A stretch of 64,000 nucleotides of DNA. It comes from a virus. Its lineage: Duplodnaviria; Caudoviricetes. The notes beneath the pieces are model-generated. The model had not been told where the DNA came from. It saw only the letters and a program-made list of their open reading frames with translations, and made no database searches. The position numbers and the translations under genes are program-made. The first letter of the stretch is position 1. Every line of letters begins with the position of its first letter. The stretch lies in IMG/VR virus record IMGVR_UViG_3300028048_003161; one strand, 5' to 3'. Positions 6,205-52,442 of this stretch are shown piece after piece.

Positions 6205-6765
6205 TGGGGGATGCATAGAGAAATAAAAAGCTGATGCATCACTAAATTTAAGGTGGTGCATCGCTAGTTTTGAGTGATGCATAGAAATATGAAATGTTTA
6301 GCACTCAAATGGATGTATGCATAGGAGAAGTGGGAAACAATGATGCATCTATGATTTTTGGGGGATACACTGACAAATTGAGAGGGGATACATCGCTTAA
6401 TAAAACAAAGATGCATAGAAAAACAGGAAAAATTGATGCACCTCTAAAAAGAAGGATACACCTATGGTAGAGGGATGATGCATAGCAACATGAAGGGTAA
6501 TGCATCACTTGTTTCAGGGGGATTCATTGGTGGAAAAAGGGTGATGCACAGCTATGAAAAGTTGATACATAGTGAACTAAATGGTTTAATCACCTCTATA
6601 AAAGTTGATGCATAGCAAATTAAAAGAGTGATGCACCACTATAAAAGTTATATCATCGCTATAAAAATTGATATCATAGGACAAAAAGAGATGATGCATC
6701 ACTATGAAAAGCAGATGCCTCACTATTTAAGAAGATAATGCATCACTATGAAAATTGCATCATAT
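6205..6765. repeat. Non-coding phased array of ~25 degenerate GATGCA(T/C) motifs at ~22 bp period
   Basis: Cores at about 6210, 6233, 6255, 6276, 6316, 6342, 6364, 6387, 6410, 6435, 6455, 6477, 6499, 6521, 6543, 6564, 6607, 6630, 6693, 6714, 6737; best-conserved unit TGATGCATCACTATRAAAA. Confidence 0.85.
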
Positions 6766-6820
6766 ACAAAATCAATATATTTAGCATACAATGATAATTG
6801 AGTCATAGGAGGATAAAAAT

Positions 6821-7315
6821 ATGAACATTAAGATTTATACAGATGGAGCATGTTCAGGAAACCCTGGACCTGGTGGTTGGGGTTGTGTATTACAGGCATT
6901 TTTACCTGATGGACAGCTCTTTCAAAGAGAGCACAGTGGTGGATATAGGATGACTACAAACAATAGGATGGAGCTAGCAGCTATAATCAATGGTTTGACT
7001 TACATCAATGGAGTAGGTCATGATGTAGAAATCATTTCAGACAGTGGCTATGTTTGTAATGCATTTAACGAGGGATGGATAGATAATTGGAGAAGAAACA
7101 ATTGGACAAAGGGCAAAAATGGTAGACTACCTAATGCTGATATGTGGCGGACACTATGGAATTTAGTGACCATGCAGAGAAATGTTAAGTTTACATTGGT
7201 AAAAGGACATGAGAACACAGAGTTGAACAATAGATGTGATAAGATGGCAGTAGCAGCAAGAAAAGATACAGCTCATTTGGAATTGGACTTTGGATATGAA
7301 CAGGGACTAGCATAG
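6821..7315 (+). CDS. rnhA: Ribonuclease HI
   Basis: IYTDGACSGNPGPGGWG, TTNNRMEL, SDSGYV, VKGH, NNRCDKMA. Confidence 0.95.
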   Translation: MNIKIYTDGACSGNPGPGGWGCVLQAFLPDGQLFQREHSGGYRMTTNNRMELAAIINGLTYINGVGHDVEIISDSGYVCNAFNEGWIDNWRRNNWTKGKNGRLPNADMWRTLWNLVTMQRNVKFTLVKGHENTELNNRCDKMAVAARKDTAHLELDFGYEQGLA

Positions 7316-7330
7316 AGGTCAAGTTGGTTT

Positions 7331-8155
7331 ATGCAGAATAAAAATAAAATCAAGCAGGAACTAAATGAAAAGCTTTACAAAATGTATAATGCTAAGCATT
7401 GGCAAGATTACAATGGTTCAATTGAGAAGTATGAATGCACTATCAACAAAGAGCATGGACTTTTCAAAGAAAGAGTAAGCAAACAAAGTAAAGATCACAT
7501 CATGGAGCAAGTTGCATATGAGATAGCAAATGTACTTGGGGTCAGATGTTGTAAGGCATCATGCAGGAAAGTAAATAGTTTATATGGAGCATTTTCAAGG
7601 TTTGAGGTACAAGATATAAGAAATATAATACCTTATGAAAGTATAATTGGTACAGTTGAATTAAGTGCAGATGAACTTATGAAAAGGACAATAGTACTTA
7701 CAAAAGGTAGGTATAACAGTTTTGTTTTGGAGTTATATCAGTTTATAATATTTGACTACATCTTAGGACAGATGGACAGACACATGGAGAACTTATCTGT
7801 ATACAGGAATAATAAAAGACAGACAATATGGTATCCTTTGTATGACAATGGGTTATGTTGTTTTTCTACATTTGGTAATGATGCAGCTGTGAAATATATG
7901 GACATGGGGTATTTCTCATCAAGACTAGGATTTAGTGAGGAAATACTTCAGTGTTTAGTAGAGTATAGGCATTTGATTTATCCTGGTGACCTTAGAGAAA
8001 TAGTGAGGTATCATCTACTAAATGAAAATGTACTTGGTGAAATAATAGATAAGTCTAACAAATACAATCAACTTACATTAGAAAGAAGAAACTGTACAAT
8101 TAAGTTTATTATGAATAACATCAGAGAAATTGATAGGCTCAATATGACAGCATAA
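7331..8155 (+). CDS. HipA/CtkA-like Ser/Thr kinase
   Basis: LFKE, EQVAYEIA, FDYILGQMDRHMENL catalytic loop, PLYDNG. Confidence 0.8.
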   Translation: MQNKNKIKQELNEKLYKMYNAKHWQDYNGSIEKYECTINKEHGLFKERVSKQSKDHIMEQVAYEIANVLGVRCCKASCRKVNSLYGAFSRFEVQDIRNIIPYESIIGTVELSADELMKRTIVLTKGRYNSFVLELYQFIIFDYILGQMDRHMENLSVYRNNKRQTIWYPLYDNGLCCFSTFGNDAAVKYMDMGYFSSRLGFSEEILQCLVEYRHLIYPGDLREIVRYHLLNENVLGEIIDKSNKYNQLTLERRNCTIKFIMNNIREIDRLNMTA

Positions 8156-8192
8156 ATCATAGAAATTGTACAATTAAAATAAAGGAGAGGCA

Positions 8193-8774
8193 ATGGGAGT
8201 TTATTATAAGAGCAAGTTCACAGATTTTGCAGCATCTGAACCTCCTTACACAGACACAGTTTATTGTAAGGATGAGAATAGAACAGTTTGTATAATACAT
8301 ATAGATGAAAATTGGAACATGTACGGAGAAGTAATTGACCCTTACGATTTGTTTATTAGTCCTGTAAAACCTATATTTGGACCATTAAATCAAGAGCAGT
8401 GTGAGCGTATGTTGATGAAAGATGCACCTAAATCTAACAGGGTGGATGTAATGAGAGAACTTGATATGGAGTTTATGGACTATGCAAAATTGATGTATTG
8501 CACTAGGTTAATAAATCTCATTAACAATTATTGGCTAGCATGGTCAGAGGATGATAAGGTTGAGGACTATCATCCTAGGTTTAATAAAGAGATCATGAAG
8601 GAAAGAGAGGCAAGCATGATAAAACTTGACCCTGAGCCTGAAGATTTGGAACCTAGCACACCTTATTGGGTGCCTGACTGGAGTAAGAGTATGGAAAACT
8701 TTGATAGACCAGAGATCAACAGTGAGATTGATACATCAGACATGGAATTTGGTAGTTCAAGGTTTGACACATAA
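8193..8774 (+). CDS. Hypothetical protein resembling the N-terminal/partner domain of Firmicutes HipA-like kinases
   Basis: ..P.SNR.DV..ELDM...D...L..TR....NNYWL pattern; directly downstream of the kinase. Confidence 0.5.
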   Translation: MGVYYKSKFTDFAASEPPYTDTVYCKDENRTVCIIHIDENWNMYGEVIDPYDLFISPVKPIFGPLNQEQCERMLMKDAPKSNRVDVMRELDMEFMDYAKLMYCTRLINLINNYWLAWSEDDKVEDYHPRFNKEIMKEREASMIKLDPEPEDLEPSTPYWVPDWSKSMENFDRPEINSEIDTSDMEFGSSRFDT

Positions 8775-8804
8775 TACATCAAGAAGAAAAGGTAAACACT
8801 AGAA

Positions 8805-9065
8805 ATGGAACTATTTTGCATTGTATATTATATTTGCAGCTATATTGCAGGAATACCTGCTATAGTAAAATTGATTAAGACAAAGAAAAGTAATGACTAT
8901 TCATTAGCAGAGGCAATTATAACAATAGTTGGAACAACTTCATGGACAATATACATTTTCAGTACAAGTCAAAGCATATGGGTTTATGTGGGCACAATAC
9001 TAGATCAAGTTATTGTACTTGTCTGGGATGGATTAATCATTAAATATTTCAAGAAAGAGCAGTAA
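8805..9065 (+). CDS. PQ-loop / SemiSWEET-like small membrane protein
   Basis: 86 aa, three hydrophobic segments, IPAIVKLIKTKKSNDYSL...SWTIY matches the SemiSWEET pattern (PQ replaced by PA). Confidence 0.7.
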   Translation: MELFCIVYYICSYIAGIPAIVKLIKTKKSNDYSLAEAIITIVGTTSWTIYIFSTSQSIWVYVGTILDQVIVLVWDGLIIKYFKKEQ

Positions 9066-9076
9066 CAAATGAGGGA

Positions 9077-10465
9077 ATGAACATGAGTAGAGCAAGGACA
9101 CAGTATAAACTTGTTGGAAGATACTTAAATGGTAATGACACTAAATACTATGGTTTAGTATCAGAGGATAATAAACAGGTTAAATATACAAGTGAGCAAA
9201 TGGCATTTGCTGTAGGTAGAGAACAAGTAATAAATGTTAAAGCACAGTTATATAATGGCAAAGTACTGTTTAGAGGAACAGACTGTGACATTAGAAATTT
9301 ACCTACTATACAATTGAATAATAATGTAGTAACTAAGGTAAGTAATAGTAAGAAAAAAGAAATAACTAAAACTACAATGACAAAAGAACTATATATGATA
9401 ATTTGTAGTAACAAAAGTATAGGTATACTCGAAGATTACTTATTTTCATGCAAGTACAATGATGAAAATAACTCTATGTATATTACTGAACAGTACAAGC
9501 ATTCATATGGAAGTGATTTAACACAATATTTCTTTGGTGATGACGAAAAAGTACAAAGGTTTATACTGACAGATGATAATGATTATTTCTATTTAAAATA
9601 TGCAGACACTAATGAAACACTAGTAAAGACTAAAGATAAAATGCTAATTCTAAATTTATTAAATATAACAGACAAGCAAATAAAATCGGTATCAACACTA
9701 GAAGATTCATTGGATTTTATAAAACAGTCTTTTTCAGACTTCTGTGGGTCAGCAAATTATGCAGTTATTACATCTGCAATGCGAGGAGAAGATTATCAAA
9801 GCTTTAGCTTTGATACAGCATTACAGTTAATGGAAATATGTATAATGGAAATGAAGTATGTAAATATTACGAAGAATAAAAGTTTAGACAGTACATATAA
9901 GAGCTACATATTTAGAGGACAAGGAATACAGAAAGGAAGTATTGAGGACCATTCATTTAAGAGTACTACAACAAGTTTAAATGTTGCAAAAGAATATGGA
10001 AAAAATGGCATTATACTTGCAATTAAAAATGTAAAGATACGTGATATTATAAATGTACAAAGCGTAGCAGGATATGATAAAGATTTTATTTACTACGAAC
10101 ATGAATTATTATTAAGGGACTTTAGTATTTTACATATTGAAAATCAAATAGGTGTAATATCAAATATTCCTGTATATTCAGCTAGACTAGAAATGCCTGA
10201 CTACACTACTAGATTAAAGATGATACTAAAACAATTCACTGATGCATATGGAAAAAATGTACAGTTCGAAATCATTAAGCTTATACTAGGTAATCTAAAA
10301 TCACTATGTAACATAACTATAAATTGGGATGGTCTAGAATTAGAGGCACTAAATGGTAATTTTGTGAATATAGCATTCACAAATGATAAAAACACAATTA
10401 TAATAGATGATATAACATATAATAATTATGATGTGATAAATGTATTAAGAAACAAACTAATGTAA
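9077..10465 (+). CDS. Putative R-S-E type ADP-ribosyltransferase fused to an element-specific N-terminal domain
   Basis: YIFRG...FKSTT...VAKEYG...YEHELLL (R, STT, ExE motifs); N-terminal ~80 aa resembles ORFs 12139 and 16207. Confidence 0.65.
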   Translation: MNMSRARTQYKLVGRYLNGNDTKYYGLVSEDNKQVKYTSEQMAFAVGREQVINVKAQLYNGKVLFRGTDCDIRNLPTIQLNNNVVTKVSNSKKKEITKTTMTKELYMIICSNKSIGILEDYLFSCKYNDENNSMYITEQYKHSYGSDLTQYFFGDDEKVQRFILTDDNDYFYLKYADTNETLVKTKDKMLILNLLNITDKQIKSVSTLEDSLDFIKQSFSDFCGSANYAVITSAMRGEDYQSFSFDTALQLMEICIMEMKYVNITKNKSLDSTYKSYIFRGQGIQKGSIEDHSFKSTTTSLNVAKEYGKNGIILAIKNVKIRDIINVQSVAGYDKDFIYYEHELLLRDFSILHIENQIGVISNIPVYSARLEMPDYTTRLKMILKQFTDAYGKNVQFEIIKLILGNLKSLCNITINWDGLELEALNGNFVNIAFTNDKNTIIIDDITYNNYDVINVLRNKLM

Positions 10466-10602
10466 ACAAGTAATTGTATAAAGAAACATTACAAGGATTC
10501 ACTTTTAGATTAAATCAGCAGGGCATAAAAAGGAGAGGCATAGCAAGTAAGGCATAGTTAAGTAGAATTAGACATTAAACATTATGAAAGGAGCACTAGC
10601 AG

Positions 10603-11169
10603 ATGATAGTTTATCATGGTAGTAACAGCAACTTCAGGAAGTTAAAAATAAGCAAGTCCTTGGTTAAGCATACTAGTACATTGGGTAATGAGGGGTTAGG
10701 AATTTATTTCAGTACAGATCCAAGTGTAGCTAATTCATATGGAAAATACTTATATACATTGGAGATAAATGACAGAGCCTTTGTTGATATGAGAAAGAAA
10801 ACAAATTGTACAAAATACATTAGGAAAATAATAGGAGCAGTTTACAAGGAAACAGGTGTCAATATAGGTATGTATTTTGACTTTCAATCTACTATAGACA
10901 GACTCTATTATGGTGGACAAGCAGTGTTTTCAGTAGGGCATGACATAGCTGAAGTGCTAGATAACACAGATGAATTTTATGATAGTGGTTTAAGTCAAAC
11001 AAAGAAAAGCAATGTTTATAGAGTATTAAGACATATGGACAAGGAATGTCCTAAAGCTTATATGTTTAATTATCACATTAAGAACATTGGAGTTATAAAG
11101 GATGTCTCTGAAGAATATGTGAGAATCATTAAAAGAGAAAACATAGGCTTTGGAGTAATAAGTGGGTAA
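10603..11169 (+). CDS. ART-PolyVal-like (H-Y type) ADP-ribosyltransferase-domain protein
   Basis: VYHGS..F.........G.EGLGIYFSTD..VA.SYG. Confidence 0.65.
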   Translation: MIVYHGSNSNFRKLKISKSLVKHTSTLGNEGLGIYFSTDPSVANSYGKYLYTLEINDRAFVDMRKKTNCTKYIRKIIGAVYKETGVNIGMYFDFQSTIDRLYYGGQAVFSVGHDIAEVLDNTDEFYDSGLSQTKKSNVYRVLRHMDKECPKAYMFNYHIKNIGVIKDVSEEYVRIIKRENIGFGVISG

Positions 11170-11233
11170 CAATTAGACATGAAAAGAGGCATTTGGAAAT
11201 CAGAAAGGCACATGTGAGAAAGAGGTATTTGAC

Positions 11234-12112
11234 ATGAAAATTTTAGTTGTAGTCACTAACATATTTGTGTTTCTCGAGGAAACATCAGTGATTAAACAGT
11301 TAGGTTTAGCAAGGAACAGGGTTTATTATACAATCAATCCTAATTATGTTAAGTCAAGAACAACTAAAAACAACTTAATACATGATATTAACAGACTTGG
11401 TCTTGGTTTAGAATATATAACATGGGGCAGAATAAATGAGAGTACCTGGGATGTAATGTTATGTTCATCATATGCAGGTGATGGTACATATGAGAAATTG
11501 ATTAATACAAGAGTAAAAGTGAATGTACTCGTAGAGGATGGTAGCTATGACTACTTCACAGAGAATGTGTCGCATCCTGATTTTGTAAGGGGAAAGAATT
11601 TGTTTTTGTTTAGACCTCAAAACAGTGTGGCTGGTAGCATTTACAGATCAGTAAGACCTATAAAAATTGATGCTGATATGCAAAGAAGAATTATGAGTTT
11701 GTACAGTGATCAATTGAATGTCTTTAATAGATTACCTAATGGGTCATGTATTTTGTTTACTAGTCCATTGGAATCAGACTTTGGTATCATGGATCATGAG
11801 AAACAGGCAGTTGAGTTTATGGAAAAGAACTTTAGAAATAGAGTAGTAATACTTAAGAAACATCCAAGAGACTTAAGTGAGTACAAGTCAAGGCATCTTG
11901 ACATTGTGGAATGTAGCACTAATGTCCCTGGTCAGATACTTGATATTTTGTTTAATGGACCTAAGGTATTTACTTTCCCTTCAACAATATGTTTTATGAG
12001 TGGTAAGGTAAATGATATGCTTTTATTAAGAATGAAAACACATAATAAAAATTACAATGACTTCTATGAAAAAGTAGGTAGACTAAATTGTTTTAGGACA
12101 GTCATGATTTAG
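11234..12112 (+). CDS. Sialyltransferase-like GT-B glycosyltransferase
   Basis: VEDG, KKHPR and FPST motifs in the order seen in bacterial sialyl/polysialyltransferases. Confidence 0.6.
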   Translation: MKILVVVTNIFVFLEETSVIKQLGLARNRVYYTINPNYVKSRTTKNNLIHDINRLGLGLEYITWGRINESTWDVMLCSSYAGDGTYEKLINTRVKVNVLVEDGSYDYFTENVSHPDFVRGKNLFLFRPQNSVAGSIYRSVRPIKIDADMQRRIMSLYSDQLNVFNRLPNGSCILFTSPLESDFGIMDHEKQAVEFMEKNFRNRVVILKKHPRDLSEYKSRHLDIVECSTNVPGQILDILFNGPKVFTFPSTICFMSGKVNDMLLLRMKTHNKNYNDFYEKVGRLNCFRTVMI

Positions 12113-48305: not shown

Positions 48306-48560
48306 ATGAGCATTGGTTTATCAGAGATAATACTTATTGGTTTAATAGTATTAGCATTGTTCAAACCTGAGAAACTTAAAGAATATGCAAGAGCATTAGG
48401 AAAAGCACTTAGGTACTTAAAGGATGAAAAAGAGAAGATTGATGATAGTGTTATAACACCTGTAAAAGAAGCAATGGAGCCTGTAACTGATATCAAGAAA
48501 GACATTGATGAGACAGTTGGAAGCATTAAGGATACATTGACAGCAGATAATAAAAAATGA
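48306..48560 (+). CDS. tatB: Twin-arginine translocase subunit, TatA/TatB family
   Basis: SIGLSEIILI..LALFKPEKL...AR.LGK; E in TM and PEKL hinge typical of TatB/TatA. Confidence 0.75.
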   Translation: MSIGLSEIILIGLIVLALFKPEKLKEYARALGKALRYLKDEKEKIDDSVITPVKEAMEPVTDIKKDIDETVGSIKDTLTADNKK

Positions 48561-49673: not shown

Positions 49674-49721
49674 GAATTATAAAAAGTGAGACAAGTAGTT
49701 TATTTTAGGAGGCAGTCAGAA

Positions 49722-49991
49722 ATGAAAGAGGATACAGAGAGTAAAATAACTAGAGCAGAGTTCTTAAAGAAATCTGCATTAGGAATGGCTGCTGTAGCAC
49801 TTGCAGCAAAGTTTGGAACAGGTATTGTTTCAACACCTAGTCCTACACAAAGTAAGAGTAGTGGAGGTACTTGTGTGAGTGCAGTAGCACCGAGTGATAA
49901 GACAGTTGTTTGGATTGACACAGCTCATGGGGGTATTACAAAATATTGGGATGGACATGAGTGGAAACCTACAGTTGCTACTTGGGGTTAA
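49722..49991 (+). CDS. Small Tat-signal protein (variant TRAEFLK motif)
   Basis: AGGAGG RBS; ITRAEFLKKS plus hydrophobic h-region; C-terminal APS...WIDT...KYWDG..W module. Confidence 0.7.
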   Translation: MKEDTESKITRAEFLKKSALGMAAVALAAKFGTGIVSTPSPTQSKSSGGTCVSAVAPSDKTVVWIDTAHGGITKYWDGHEWKPTVATWG

Positions 49992-50933: not shown

Positions 50934-52442
50934 ATGGAAAAGCAACGTAGGAAAAGAAAGAAATTCCTTCAATTTAACGAATGGATTTCTAATATGTACC
51001 CTGAATATGTGAGACAGGCTCAGGAAAGAGCAGGTGGGGTATCACTTACAGACCTGGAGAAAGAAAATCATAGGGCAATTCCTTTATCAAAGGAATTTAC
51101 ATTTCAGGTTACAGACAAATGTAATTTAGCATGTACATATTGTTATCAGATCAACAAGTCAACAAGGAGGATGCCATTTGAAACTGCAAAGATTGCAGTT
51201 GATAAGTTATTAAGCGGCGCAGATGGGTTTGGTGATTACGTCAATCCTGAAACATCACCAGCTATTGTACTTGACTTCATTGGTGGTGAGCCTTTCTTGG
51301 AGGTTGAACTCATTGATCAGATTGTGGATTACTTTAGAGAACAAGCTATTAAGCTTAGACACCCTTGGGCAGAGAAATTTGCAATCAGCATTTGTACAAA
51401 TGGAGTACTTTACAAGGATCCTAAGGTACAAAAGTTTTTGCAGAAGAATACAGCTAATTTGAGTTTGTCTGTCACAGTTGATGGAATTAAGGAACTTCAT
51501 GATGCTTGTAGAATATTCCCTGATGGCAGACCTTCATATGATTTAGCTCATGGAGCAGCACTTGATTGGATGGCTCGTGGTTATGACATGGGAAGTAAGA
51601 TCACAATCGCACCTAACAACATTAAGTTTTTATCAAAGAGTCTTAAGCAAATGGTTGAGGATGGTTACTATGACATCAATGCTAACTGTGTATACGAGGA
51701 TGTTTGGAAACCTGAACATGCAACAGAACTTTACTATCAGTGTAAAGATTTCACAGACTTTATCAAAGATAAGATTGATCTGTTTGATTATAGTTTCTCA
51801 CTTTTACAAGAAAGATGTGGTAACCCTCTGTTAGAGAGTGATAACAATAACTGGTGTGGTGGTACAGGAGACATGTTAGCAGTAGATCCTGATGGAAGAA
51901 TCTTCCCTTGCATCAGATATATGGAGAGTAGCCTTGGCACACAGCAGAAGCCTATTGTTATTGGTGATGTGTGGAGAGGTATTGCACAGAAACCTTGTGA
52001 GAAAGAATGTTTAGAGTGCATGGGAAAAATCACTAGACGTTCACAGTCAACAGATGAGTGCTTCTATTGTCCAATTGGACAGGGTTGTGGCTGGTGTTCA
52101 GGGTTTAATTACCAGACATTTGGTACAGTCAACAAGAGAGCAACATTTACATGTGAGATGCATAAGTCACAGGCTTTAGCATCCTGCTATTTCAATAACA
52201 GTTTTGCTTTATTAAGCGAGAGATACAAAGATTTTGCAATGGACTTATGGGTTCCTGAGCAGTGGGCAGTTCCTATGATTGGTCAGGAAGAATATGACAA
52301 GCTTGTAGGAATGTGTAGACAGCTTGGTAGGTATGTAAATGATCAGAATGCTACAATGGTTAAGATACATGCAGATGAGGGCAGCGGTGAAATTTCTGAT
52401 TACATTCATAATCAGGATAAGATTGAGGTGCTGGCACGATAA
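50934..52442 (+). CDS. Radical SAM/SPASM peptide maturase, CXXX-repeat target family
   Basis: FQVTDKCNLACTYCYQ (CxxxCxxC), FIGGEP, SPASM CGGTG...GRIFPC and CFYC...GCGWC; start ATG 50934 after AAGGAG. Confidence 0.9.
   Translation: MEKQRRKRKKFLQFNEWISNMYPEYVRQAQERAGGVSLTDLEKENHRAIPLSKEFTFQVTDKCNLACTYCYQINKSTRRMPFETAKIAVDKLLSGADGFGDYVNPETSPAIVLDFIGGEPFLEVELIDQIVDYFREQAIKLRHPWAEKFAISICTNGVLYKDPKVQKFLQKNTANLSLSVTVDGIKELHDACRIFPDGRPSYDLAHGAALDWMARGYDMGSKITIAPNNIKFLSKSLKQMVEDGYYDINANCVYEDVWKPEHATELYYQCKDFTDFIKDKIDLFDYSFSLLQERCGNPLLESDNNNWCGGTGDMLAVDPDGRIFPCIRYMESSLGTQQKPIVIGDVWRGIAQKPCEKECLECMGKITRRSQSTDECFYCPIGQGCGWCSGFNYQTFGTVNKRATFTCEMHKSQALASCYFNNSFALLSERYKDFAMDLWVPEQWAVPMIGQEEYDKLVGMCRQLGRYVNDQNATMVKIHADEGSGEISDYIHNQDKIEVLAR

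Follow-up and report, generated by a model that had tools for sequence, protein, structure and literature searches.

A candidate Tat cargo with a one-arginine signal and a phage-fibre-type module, encoded between a divergent TatC and a CXXX-repeat protein in a viral contig

The window described here, a 64,000-nucleotide stretch of IMG/VR virus record IMGVR_UViG_3300028048_003161, carries between positions 48306 and 53177 a cassette of genes that are all co-directional (+) and that encode, in this order, two TatA/B-like subunits, TatC, a 41-aa peptide, a short protein that we call mini, a CXXX-repeat protein, accessory protein B, a radical SAM maturase and accessory protein A (Table 1). The closest relatives of the window, L001 and L034, are 93% identical to it, as is the TatC of L034, and L034 is a human-gut contig of 464,735 bp with the Tat/mini/CXXX/radical SAM module at 6459-11395. 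Since this near-identical module lies on a 465-kb contig, the window probably comes from an extrachromosomal element or megaphage of about half a megabase; no virion genes were seen within the window.

Table 1. Genes and features of the cassette in the window
Feature	Coordinates	Strand	Basis
TatA/B-like subunit 1, 84 aa	48306..48560	+	PF02416 39.6 bits (above cut-off 21); TIGR01411 38.8 bits, below cut-off
TatA/B-like subunit 2, 62 aa	48595..48783	+	PF02416 32.3 bits (above cut-off 21)
Divergent TatC, 248 aa	48798..49544	+	PF00902 170.4 bits (cut-off 25.1); TIGR00945 167.4 bits (cut-off 132.7)
Single-pass membrane peptide, 41 aa	49548..49673	+	ORF list; only in closest relatives (L001); no family match
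Shine-Dalgarno of mini gene, AGGAGG	49707..49712	+	Read from the sequence; 9-nt spacer to ATG
Mini gene ORF, 89 aa	49722-49991	+	ATG start, Shine-Dalgarno upstream
Mini Tat-type signal peptide (putative), residues 1-30	49722..49811	+	Motif, h-region, Lys30
Mini fibre-type beta module (predicted), residues 50-89	49869..49988	+	A-P-x-D...W-I-D-T...G-G-I-x-K-Y-W-D-G-x-x-W...W-G
N-domain + CXXX-repeat protein, 192 aa	50020..50598	+	TIGR04117 18.8 bits, below cut-off 50
Accessory protein B, 105 aa	50614..50931	+	Own HMM matches L001, L006, L034, G001
Radical SAM/SPASM maturase, 502 aa	50934..52442	+	TIGR04115 441.9 bits (above cut-off 350)
Accessory protein A, tandem duplicate, 223 aa	52506..53177	+	Two domains match own accA HMM

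The mini gene is a real open reading frame with a strong ribosome-binding site. Its product begins M-K-E-D-T-E-S-K-I-T-R-A-E-F-L-K-K, with both acidic and basic residues in the n-region, and residues 9-18 read I-T-R-A-E-F-L-K-K-S. An h-region of 12 uncharged residues (SALGMAAVALAA) follows and is closed by Lys30, after which come a Ser/Thr/Pro-rich linker and a 40-residue Trp-rich C-terminus with four tryptophans. The preliminary description of this gene had read T-R-A-E-F-L-K-K and the hydrophobic region behind it as a Tat-like signal and the remainder as a short Trp-rich beta passenger, and both readings are borne out, the passenger being a 40-aa module with four predicted strands. An upstream in-frame GTG at 49686 would add F-R-R-Q, and with it an RR; this start was rejected, as the arginines would lie 20 residues ahead of the h-region, and it is superfluous, since the homologues in L002 and G001 begin directly at M-T-R-A. 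The mini protein gives no Pfam or PHROGs match, nor any match to DUF2510 (PF10708) at E values up to 0.1. A scan of all window ORFs of at least 40 aa in six frames, for R-x-x-[FLIVM]-[LIVMF] near the N-terminus followed by an uncharged hydrophobic stretch, found no second Tat-like signal, as had been claimed from first inspection; its other matches are lipoprotein or transmembrane starts, one internal TatC start and antisense frames.

While a word-indexed homologue search returned only two near-identical relatives of mini, and tblastn of the protein against phage and plasmid collections gave no match, phmmer, run exhaustively against 1.84 billion cluster representatives, yielded 161 matches, 43 of them with the same N-terminal signal. 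The first arginine is invariant in all 43, and it is preceded by Ser or Thr in 41 and followed by an F-L-K-K consensus. The residue after the arginine is Lys in 25 (58%), Ala in six (14%), Arg in five (12%), Leu in two, Glu in two, and Met, Thr or Ser in one each, so that the consensus of the family can be written [ST]-R-K-[DE]-F-L-K-K with a variable second position. The motif being conserved in the 43 family members, R-A in mini is not a chance occurrence; and as only five of them carry the canonical RR, the possibility raised at the outset that RA is a private decay of an RR signal falls away, and the signal is better described as a variant of the Tat type. These sequences support a family rule of one arginine, most often RK and not specifically RA. 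In three of the phmmer matches (P0021, P0031 and P0152) the one-arginine signal precedes between two and six module copies in a larger secreted protein, and P0031 scores 23.8 bits against DUF2510, just under the cut-off of 24.

The region behind the motif is also shared. In a tabulation of the 43 homologues in which one row is mis-anchored, the uncharged stretch is exactly 12 residues long in 26 and the first charged residue behind it is a Lys in 32, the mean hydropathy of the best 12 residues is 1.93, as against 2.1-2.9 for the lipoprotein signals of the window, and A-x-A occurs in 26, often followed by a conserved T-V-S-D-N-L; mini itself is without the D-N-L motif that comes after A-x-A in most relatives. 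Two consecutive arginines are absent from mini (R-A), while the other parts of a Tat signal are present: the capping Ser or Thr, x-F-L-K, a short and weakly hydrophobic h-region and a basic c-region. Because the second arginine is missing, mini reaches only 12.7 bits against the Tat signal profile TIGR01409, below its cut-off of 16.7. Weak profile matches connect the mini signal with the formate-dehydrogenase TAT target family TIGR02811 (E 5e-4), and the mini family with the NapA signal peptide 2pq4_B (E 1.7, its second-best PDB match). By these sequence features the N-terminus of mini is a signal peptide of Tat type and not a membrane anchor, the h-region of 12 residues closed by Lys being too short for the latter.

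The genomic distribution of mini points in the same direction. The mini gene is preceded by tatC in the window with L001 and L034, in L002/L035, L004/L005, L006, L008, G001, G313 and G052, and mini is just downstream of tatC wherever enough DNA is at hand. In some loci a protein of 570-830 aa is encoded between the two (L037 9096-11588 on the minus strand, L006:1941-3665 and L003:1-297); it starts with a membrane helix and has a long coiled coil and, at its C-terminus, a conserved domain. Co-occurrence was examined within the family to which Lachnospiraceae bacterium 47-T17 belongs (Lachnospiraceae-type), in a sample of 401 genomes of which 95% lack a TatC above the Pfam cut-off. Among the 19 that have one, sixteen score 189-214 bits and three 88-162 bits; full-length mini is found in three of the 401 genomes (G001, G052 and G313), and these are exactly the three with the low-scoring TatC, mini and TatC being on one contig and 2-3 kb apart in each. 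By our own calculation, the chance of all three mini genomes falling among the 19 TatC genomes is about 9e-5. Tat is thus rare in the sampled family (19/401), and its canonical systems there are tatA-tatA-tatC trios. Conversely, 22 Tat-less viral contigs and a Blautia wexlerae MAG that have the CXXX/radical SAM module have no mini protein. A profile search of viral contigs with the TatC alignment gave no match, blastn of the module DNA against the phage collection likewise gave none, and the TatC matches in that collection are at most 34% identical and mostly host-DNA-like.

On this basis mini would likely be a cargo of the private Tat system of the element. We considered whether its N-terminus could instead be an ordinary Sec signal or membrane anchor, with the neighbouring Tat genes serving other cargo. 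The missing second arginine, the TIGR01409 score and the frequency of A-x-A sites in the family would all fit such an arrangement, but the conserved [ST]-R-x-x-F-L-K, the short Lys-closed h-region, the strict co-occurrence with a divergent TatC in a family where most genomes have none, and the lack of any other Tat-like signal in the window make it improbable.

The site at which TatC receives the twin arginines is altered in the TatC encoded with mini. Cryo-EM of the E. coli TatBC-substrate complex (2026) has shown that the first arginine (Arg1) is held via water by E15 and stacked under F94, that the second (Arg2) forms a salt bridge with E103, that the pocket for the Phe of the motif is formed by F94, L9, H12 and L13, and that the E103A mutant is inactive and binds no substrate (PMC13323110). 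Aligned to Aquifex TatC (4b4a), the window TatC keeps His18, Glu21 and Phe97, the equivalents of E. coli H12, E15 and F94, while its TMH2-3 loop, P-V-F-T-S-K-H-A-F, is without Glu. The signal-binding set H12/E15/F94/E103 is therefore incomplete, the E103 equivalent being replaced by His or Ala in a loop alignment that is uncertain by one residue. Equivalents of H12 and F94 are retained in all mini-associated TatCs that cover the region, and that of E15 in 7/7 (L008 is partial). At the E103 position, by contrast, the eight mini-associated TatCs have His or Ala (window), Lys, Lys, Val, His, Asn or no residue, with Glu only in G001, i.e. in one of eight versus 16/16 canonical TatCs of the same bacterial family, subject to the same one-residue uncertainty; four of the eight have a Glu three residues earlier in the loop. 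All sixteen canonical loops read P/Q-G-L-x-x-x-E, and that of Aquifex P-A-L-Y-S-H-E. In the TatC tree the mini-associated proteins lie on one side of a single branch (support 93/92, with long branches). Among the canonical systems, the TatC neighbour in L051 is a flavoprotein starting S-R-R-D-F-L-K-G, and L058 (G035) has an otherwise canonical TatC with Ala at the E15-equivalent position (H-L-A-A-L-R-K-R).

The E. coli second arginine tolerates replacement by K, N or Q with slower export (PMC1182353), from which we infer that the non-basic residue in the mini signal would need a different receptor. It had been proposed that the co-encoded TatC is specialized for the variant signal, and at the level of the clade this is supported by the loss of Glu103. 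A one-to-one match of loop and signal does not hold: locus-by-locus co-variation was rejected, since G001 combines RA with Glu, and L006 and G052 combine RR with its absence. As there is no strict match by locus, the comparison supports a joint relaxation, in which the signal would have lost Arg2 and TatC the partner of Arg2, and not a receptor tuned to RA.

AlphaFold, run with a 31-sequence alignment, predicts that residues 11-32 of mini form the signal helix and residues 50-89 four strands (pLDDT above 90), with a disordered linker in between. The top match of Foldseek against the PDB is 7qof_l (E 0.058, probability 1.0, TM by target 0.74, rmsd 1.2 Å over 37 columns, for a tiny domain), and a VIA all-against-all search places the same chain first of 48,161 (Z 4.3, a low absolute score, again for a tiny domain). 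This chain is residues 1-38 of the trimeric head fibre gp21 of phicrAss001, whose N-terminal domain is plugged as a trimer into a hexon pocket in the virion (PMC10172136). The mini family profile also matches 7qof_l, at E 1.2, with a common pattern A-P-x-D...W...K-Y-x-N-x-x-W. Lower-scoring structural matches include the trimerization domains of collagens XV and XVIII and tailspike ends, and among predicted viral structures the module matches tail fibre and structural proteins. Most of the 161 phmmer matches, moreover, are signal-less proteins with a phage-fibre-like start and the module at the end. The predicted fold thus points to a phage-fibre docking or oligomerizing unit, with modest scores as befit a domain of this size.

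The gene that starts 28 nt past the mini stop encodes a 192-aa protein with a charged helix at its start, no hydrophobic stretch and no signal peptide, and without a match in Pfam or PHROGs. It has a conserved helical N-domain of 115 aa and a core S-S-C-R-x-x-C-T-G-L-C-V-G-S-C-I-G-x-C-N-G-C, and ten homologues share the blocks R-R-N-G-Y-G-S and S-S-C-R-x-x-C-T-G-L-C-V-G-S-C. It misses the TIGR04117 cut-off, yet the core with Cys at every fourth position is present and, judged by this sequence, the protein would work like a member of that family without belonging to it; it is the presumed substrate of the radical SAM enzyme, and the proposed passenger of mini. The fold of the N-domain is predicted with moderate confidence (pLDDT 59 overall, 66-82 in the N-domain) and gives no Foldseek matches, its best VIA hits (Z 4.6) being unrelated helical proteins. 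The maturase, whose ORF is open from 50883 and whose length is counted from the ATG at 50934, belongs at the equivalog-domain level to TIGR04115, the 'radical SAM peptide maturase, CXXX-repeat target family'; it scores 158 bits against the PapB family, below cut-off, and 204 bits against phrog_1802. Accessory protein A is present as a single copy of about 105 aa in L002, L006, G001 and the Tat-less phages, and accessory protein B matches no known family, Pfam and PHROGs giving nothing for it.

The mini and N-domain CXXX genes are adjacent well beyond the window. The gap between them is 11-28 nt in five Tat-positive lineages (window/L001, L002, L004, L006 and L007/L008), and in G313, too, the two lie next to each other. 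A signal-less module protein of 62-71 aa is encoded directly upstream of the N-domain CXXX gene in three Tat-less loci, L040, L066 and L067, and in L042, also Tat-less, a fibre-like protein of 427 aa with the module at its end is encoded one gene upstream of the N-domain CXXX gene, so that the association is seen in four Tat-less loci and six Tat-positive lineages. A module protein followed by an N-domain CXXX protein is thus a gene pair in its own right, with or without Tat, and the existence of signal-less pairs in Tat-less loci suggests that the signal peptide was added to a binding partner that already existed, as would be expected of a hitch-hiker adaptor. The adjacency is broken in G001, where mini is followed by the gene for a CXXX-only protein that has an Ala-rich signal itself, the N-domain protein being encoded on a different contig, and in L003, where mini lies 2.3 kb from an N-domain CXXX gene that is flanked by signal-bearing CXXX proteins. 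Such CXXX-only proteins beside Tat/mini genes, at 8278-8868 (-) of L037 (G001:C14) and at L003:352-963 and 1386-2135, have Ala-rich, Arg-poor signals ending V-F-A or A-Y-A. In L064 (1751-2998), the gene behind that of a signal-less module protein encodes no CXXX protein but one of 324 aa with pentapeptide repeats of N-G-T-x-S type and scattered Cys, which may be an analogous partner of the module protein.

In Tat-less phages the N-domain CXXX gene immediately follows genes for baseplate wedge, baseplate and tail-collar fibre, which indicates that the CXXX/radical SAM module is at home in the tail-fibre region and that export is not intrinsic to the N-domain CXXX protein. This arrangement is carried by L015:3107-12060 (IMG/VR UViG 2806310948_000001) and by another 21 viral loci like it, in phages of 40-72 kb without Tat; in loci of the L015 type the N-domain CXXX gene is followed by those for a 265-aa CXXX-only protein, accessory protein A and a TIGR04115 maturase, which suggests tail-fibre parts modified by a radical SAM enzyme. 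The occurrence of signal-less module proteins beside CXXX genes could also be taken to mean that mini is never exported and is a fibre assembly factor, whose N-terminal helix serves for interactions in the cytoplasm or for association with the membrane. This we regard as highly improbable, given that mini has the full architecture of a signal peptide and that this architecture is seen only where TatC is present.

The explanation that we favour is therefore built on mini as a dedicated Tat cargo. Mini would be exported by a minimal TatA/TatA/TatC translocase of the element, by means of a signal that is a Tat signal in all but Arg2 ([ST]-R-x-[DE]-F-L-K-K, a 12-residue h-region and Lys), and the cognate TatC would come from a fast-evolving clade that has kept the contacts to Arg1 and Phe and mostly lost the Glu that bridges to Arg2. 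Its passenger would be a phage-fibre docking or trimerizing module of 40 aa, with which the N-domain CXXX protein forms a conserved gene pair. Radical SAM/SPASM enzymes act in the cytoplasm. There the TIGR04115 enzyme would cross-link the Cys repeats, possibly through thioethers, the module protein would bind the cross-linked product, and this complex would reach the cell surface through Tat by hitch-hiking on the one-arginine signal. The signal is on one partner only, mini bearing it and the adjacent 192-aa protein being signal-less, and a cross-linked CXXX product would need an exporter of folded proteins. A prediction of the complex of mini (30-89) with the CXXX protein (1-150), run without controls, scored 0.11 against a mark of 0.32 and counts neither way.

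The role of mini as a piggy-back carrier, which had been suggested from the cassette itself, is plausible in view of the conserved gene pair and is weakened by the broken adjacency in G001 and L003 and by the different partner gene in L064, and we put the chance that mini carries the N-domain CXXX protein through Tat somewhat below even. A different outcome is that the private Tat system exports mini alone, and that mini acts by itself outside the cell, as a trimeric fibre-tip decoy or wall anchor or as a cap for signal-bearing CXXX proteins, with the N-domain CXXX protein staying in the cytoplasm or leaving by another way. The CXXX-only proteins with Sec-like signals of their own beside mini in G001 and L003 favour this outcome, as do the module repeats of P0021 and P0031, two larger secreted proteins headed by the mini-type signal, and the apparent nature of the N-domain CXXX protein in Tat-less phages, that of a tail-region protein assembled in the cytoplasm; but it leaves the adjacency of module and N-domain CXXX genes unexplained, with and without Tat alike, and gives no reason for using a folded-protein exporter on a 50-aa passenger. 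We consider export of mini alone rather unlikely. The hitch-hiking explanation as a whole, i.e. a dedicated Tat cargo, a co-relaxed TatC and a co-exported CXXX protein, we regard as evenly poised between right and wrong.

That Tat signals, dedicated TatAC pairs and hitch-hiking exist is already known; what is new is the pairing of a one-arginine family with a TatC clade lacking Glu103 and, as a candidate, a carrier built from a fibre module. Full-text literature searches turned up neither a description of such a Tat system on phages or elements nor one of a natural one-arginine signal family, and nothing on the CXXX-repeat system, which is named in databases and for which no bench work was found. 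The salt bridge between Arg2 and Glu103 is central to signal recognition in E. coli, and a clade without both would, if true, show a rewiring of Tat specificity and offer a ready-made orthogonal pair of signal and receptor for testing. In its boldest form, which is speculative and which we think rather doubtful, the proposal is of a natural orthogonal Tat pair: a Glu103-less TatC clade that reads a one-arginine motif, used by giant elements and prophages in mostly Tat-less Lachnospiraceae to bring a phage-fibre-derived, cross-linked cysteine-ladder protein to the surface, piggy-back on a 50-residue trimeric fibre-dock adaptor. Three little-studied subjects would also be linked: mobile-element Tat in mostly Tat-less hosts, the CXXX radical SAM system and the reuse of phage tail-fibre parts at the cell surface.

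The signal of mini is nearest to canonical Tat signals (S/T-R-R-x-F-L-K, as in NapA and TorA), with which it shares the Ser/Thr cap, Arg1, F-L-K, the weak h-region and the basic c-region, although Arg2 is fixed there while position 2 is variable in the mini family and Ala in the window. Variant and engineered signals show that one arginine can be enough for Tat export (PMC1182353), and TtrB and Rieske (K-R) and the R-K, R-N and R-Q mutants of SufI and TorA resemble mini in this respect. The known natural variants, however, exchange Arg1 for Lys, whereas the mini family keeps Arg1 and admits residues down to Ala, Leu and Glu at position 2; and, unlike the known variants, it is accompanied by a TatC without Glu103. 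A dedicated translocase has its counterpart in Bacillus subtilis, a Firmicute, where TatAd/TatCd form a minimal pair encoded beside its dedicated cargo gene phoD. A minimal TatA-TatC next to its cargo gene is common to both, but PhoD has an RR signal and TatCd keeps the Glu, and here the genes are borne by a mobile element whose host family mostly lacks Tat.

For the proposed co-export, the closest parallels are hydrogenase-2 HybO/HybC and DmsA/DmsB, described as hitch-hiker Tat export (Rodrigue et al., 1999, as cited in PMC13673990), which likewise have the signal on one partner, a small protein, a signal-less adjacent partner and maturation in the cytoplasm. The passenger there is a cofactor enzyme, whereas here it would be a Cys-repeat protein modified by a radical SAM enzyme, and the candidate carrier extends only about 50 aa past its signal. 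The CXXX-repeat radical SAM system of TIGR04115/TIGR04117 type has the same maturase family and a substrate with Cys at every fourth residue; in the present cassette the Tat signal is on a separate fibre-module protein and the CXXX substrate has a 115-aa N-domain. The docking domain of phicrAss001 gp21 is a beta module of about 38 residues that resembles the one of mini, but it stands at the N-terminus and inserts into a hexon of the capsid, while that of mini is C-terminal and follows a signal peptide. Finally, in Methanococcus voltae CrpA/CrpC a SPASM radical SAM enzyme places thioether (ranthionine) cross-links on a Cys-rich protein (PMC13692751). The same SPASM thioether logic, applied to a Cys-rich protein rather than a short peptide and with N-terminal domains as a guide, would apply here, although CrpA/CrpC involve another enzyme group and another repeat, and neither an export system nor a fibre module.
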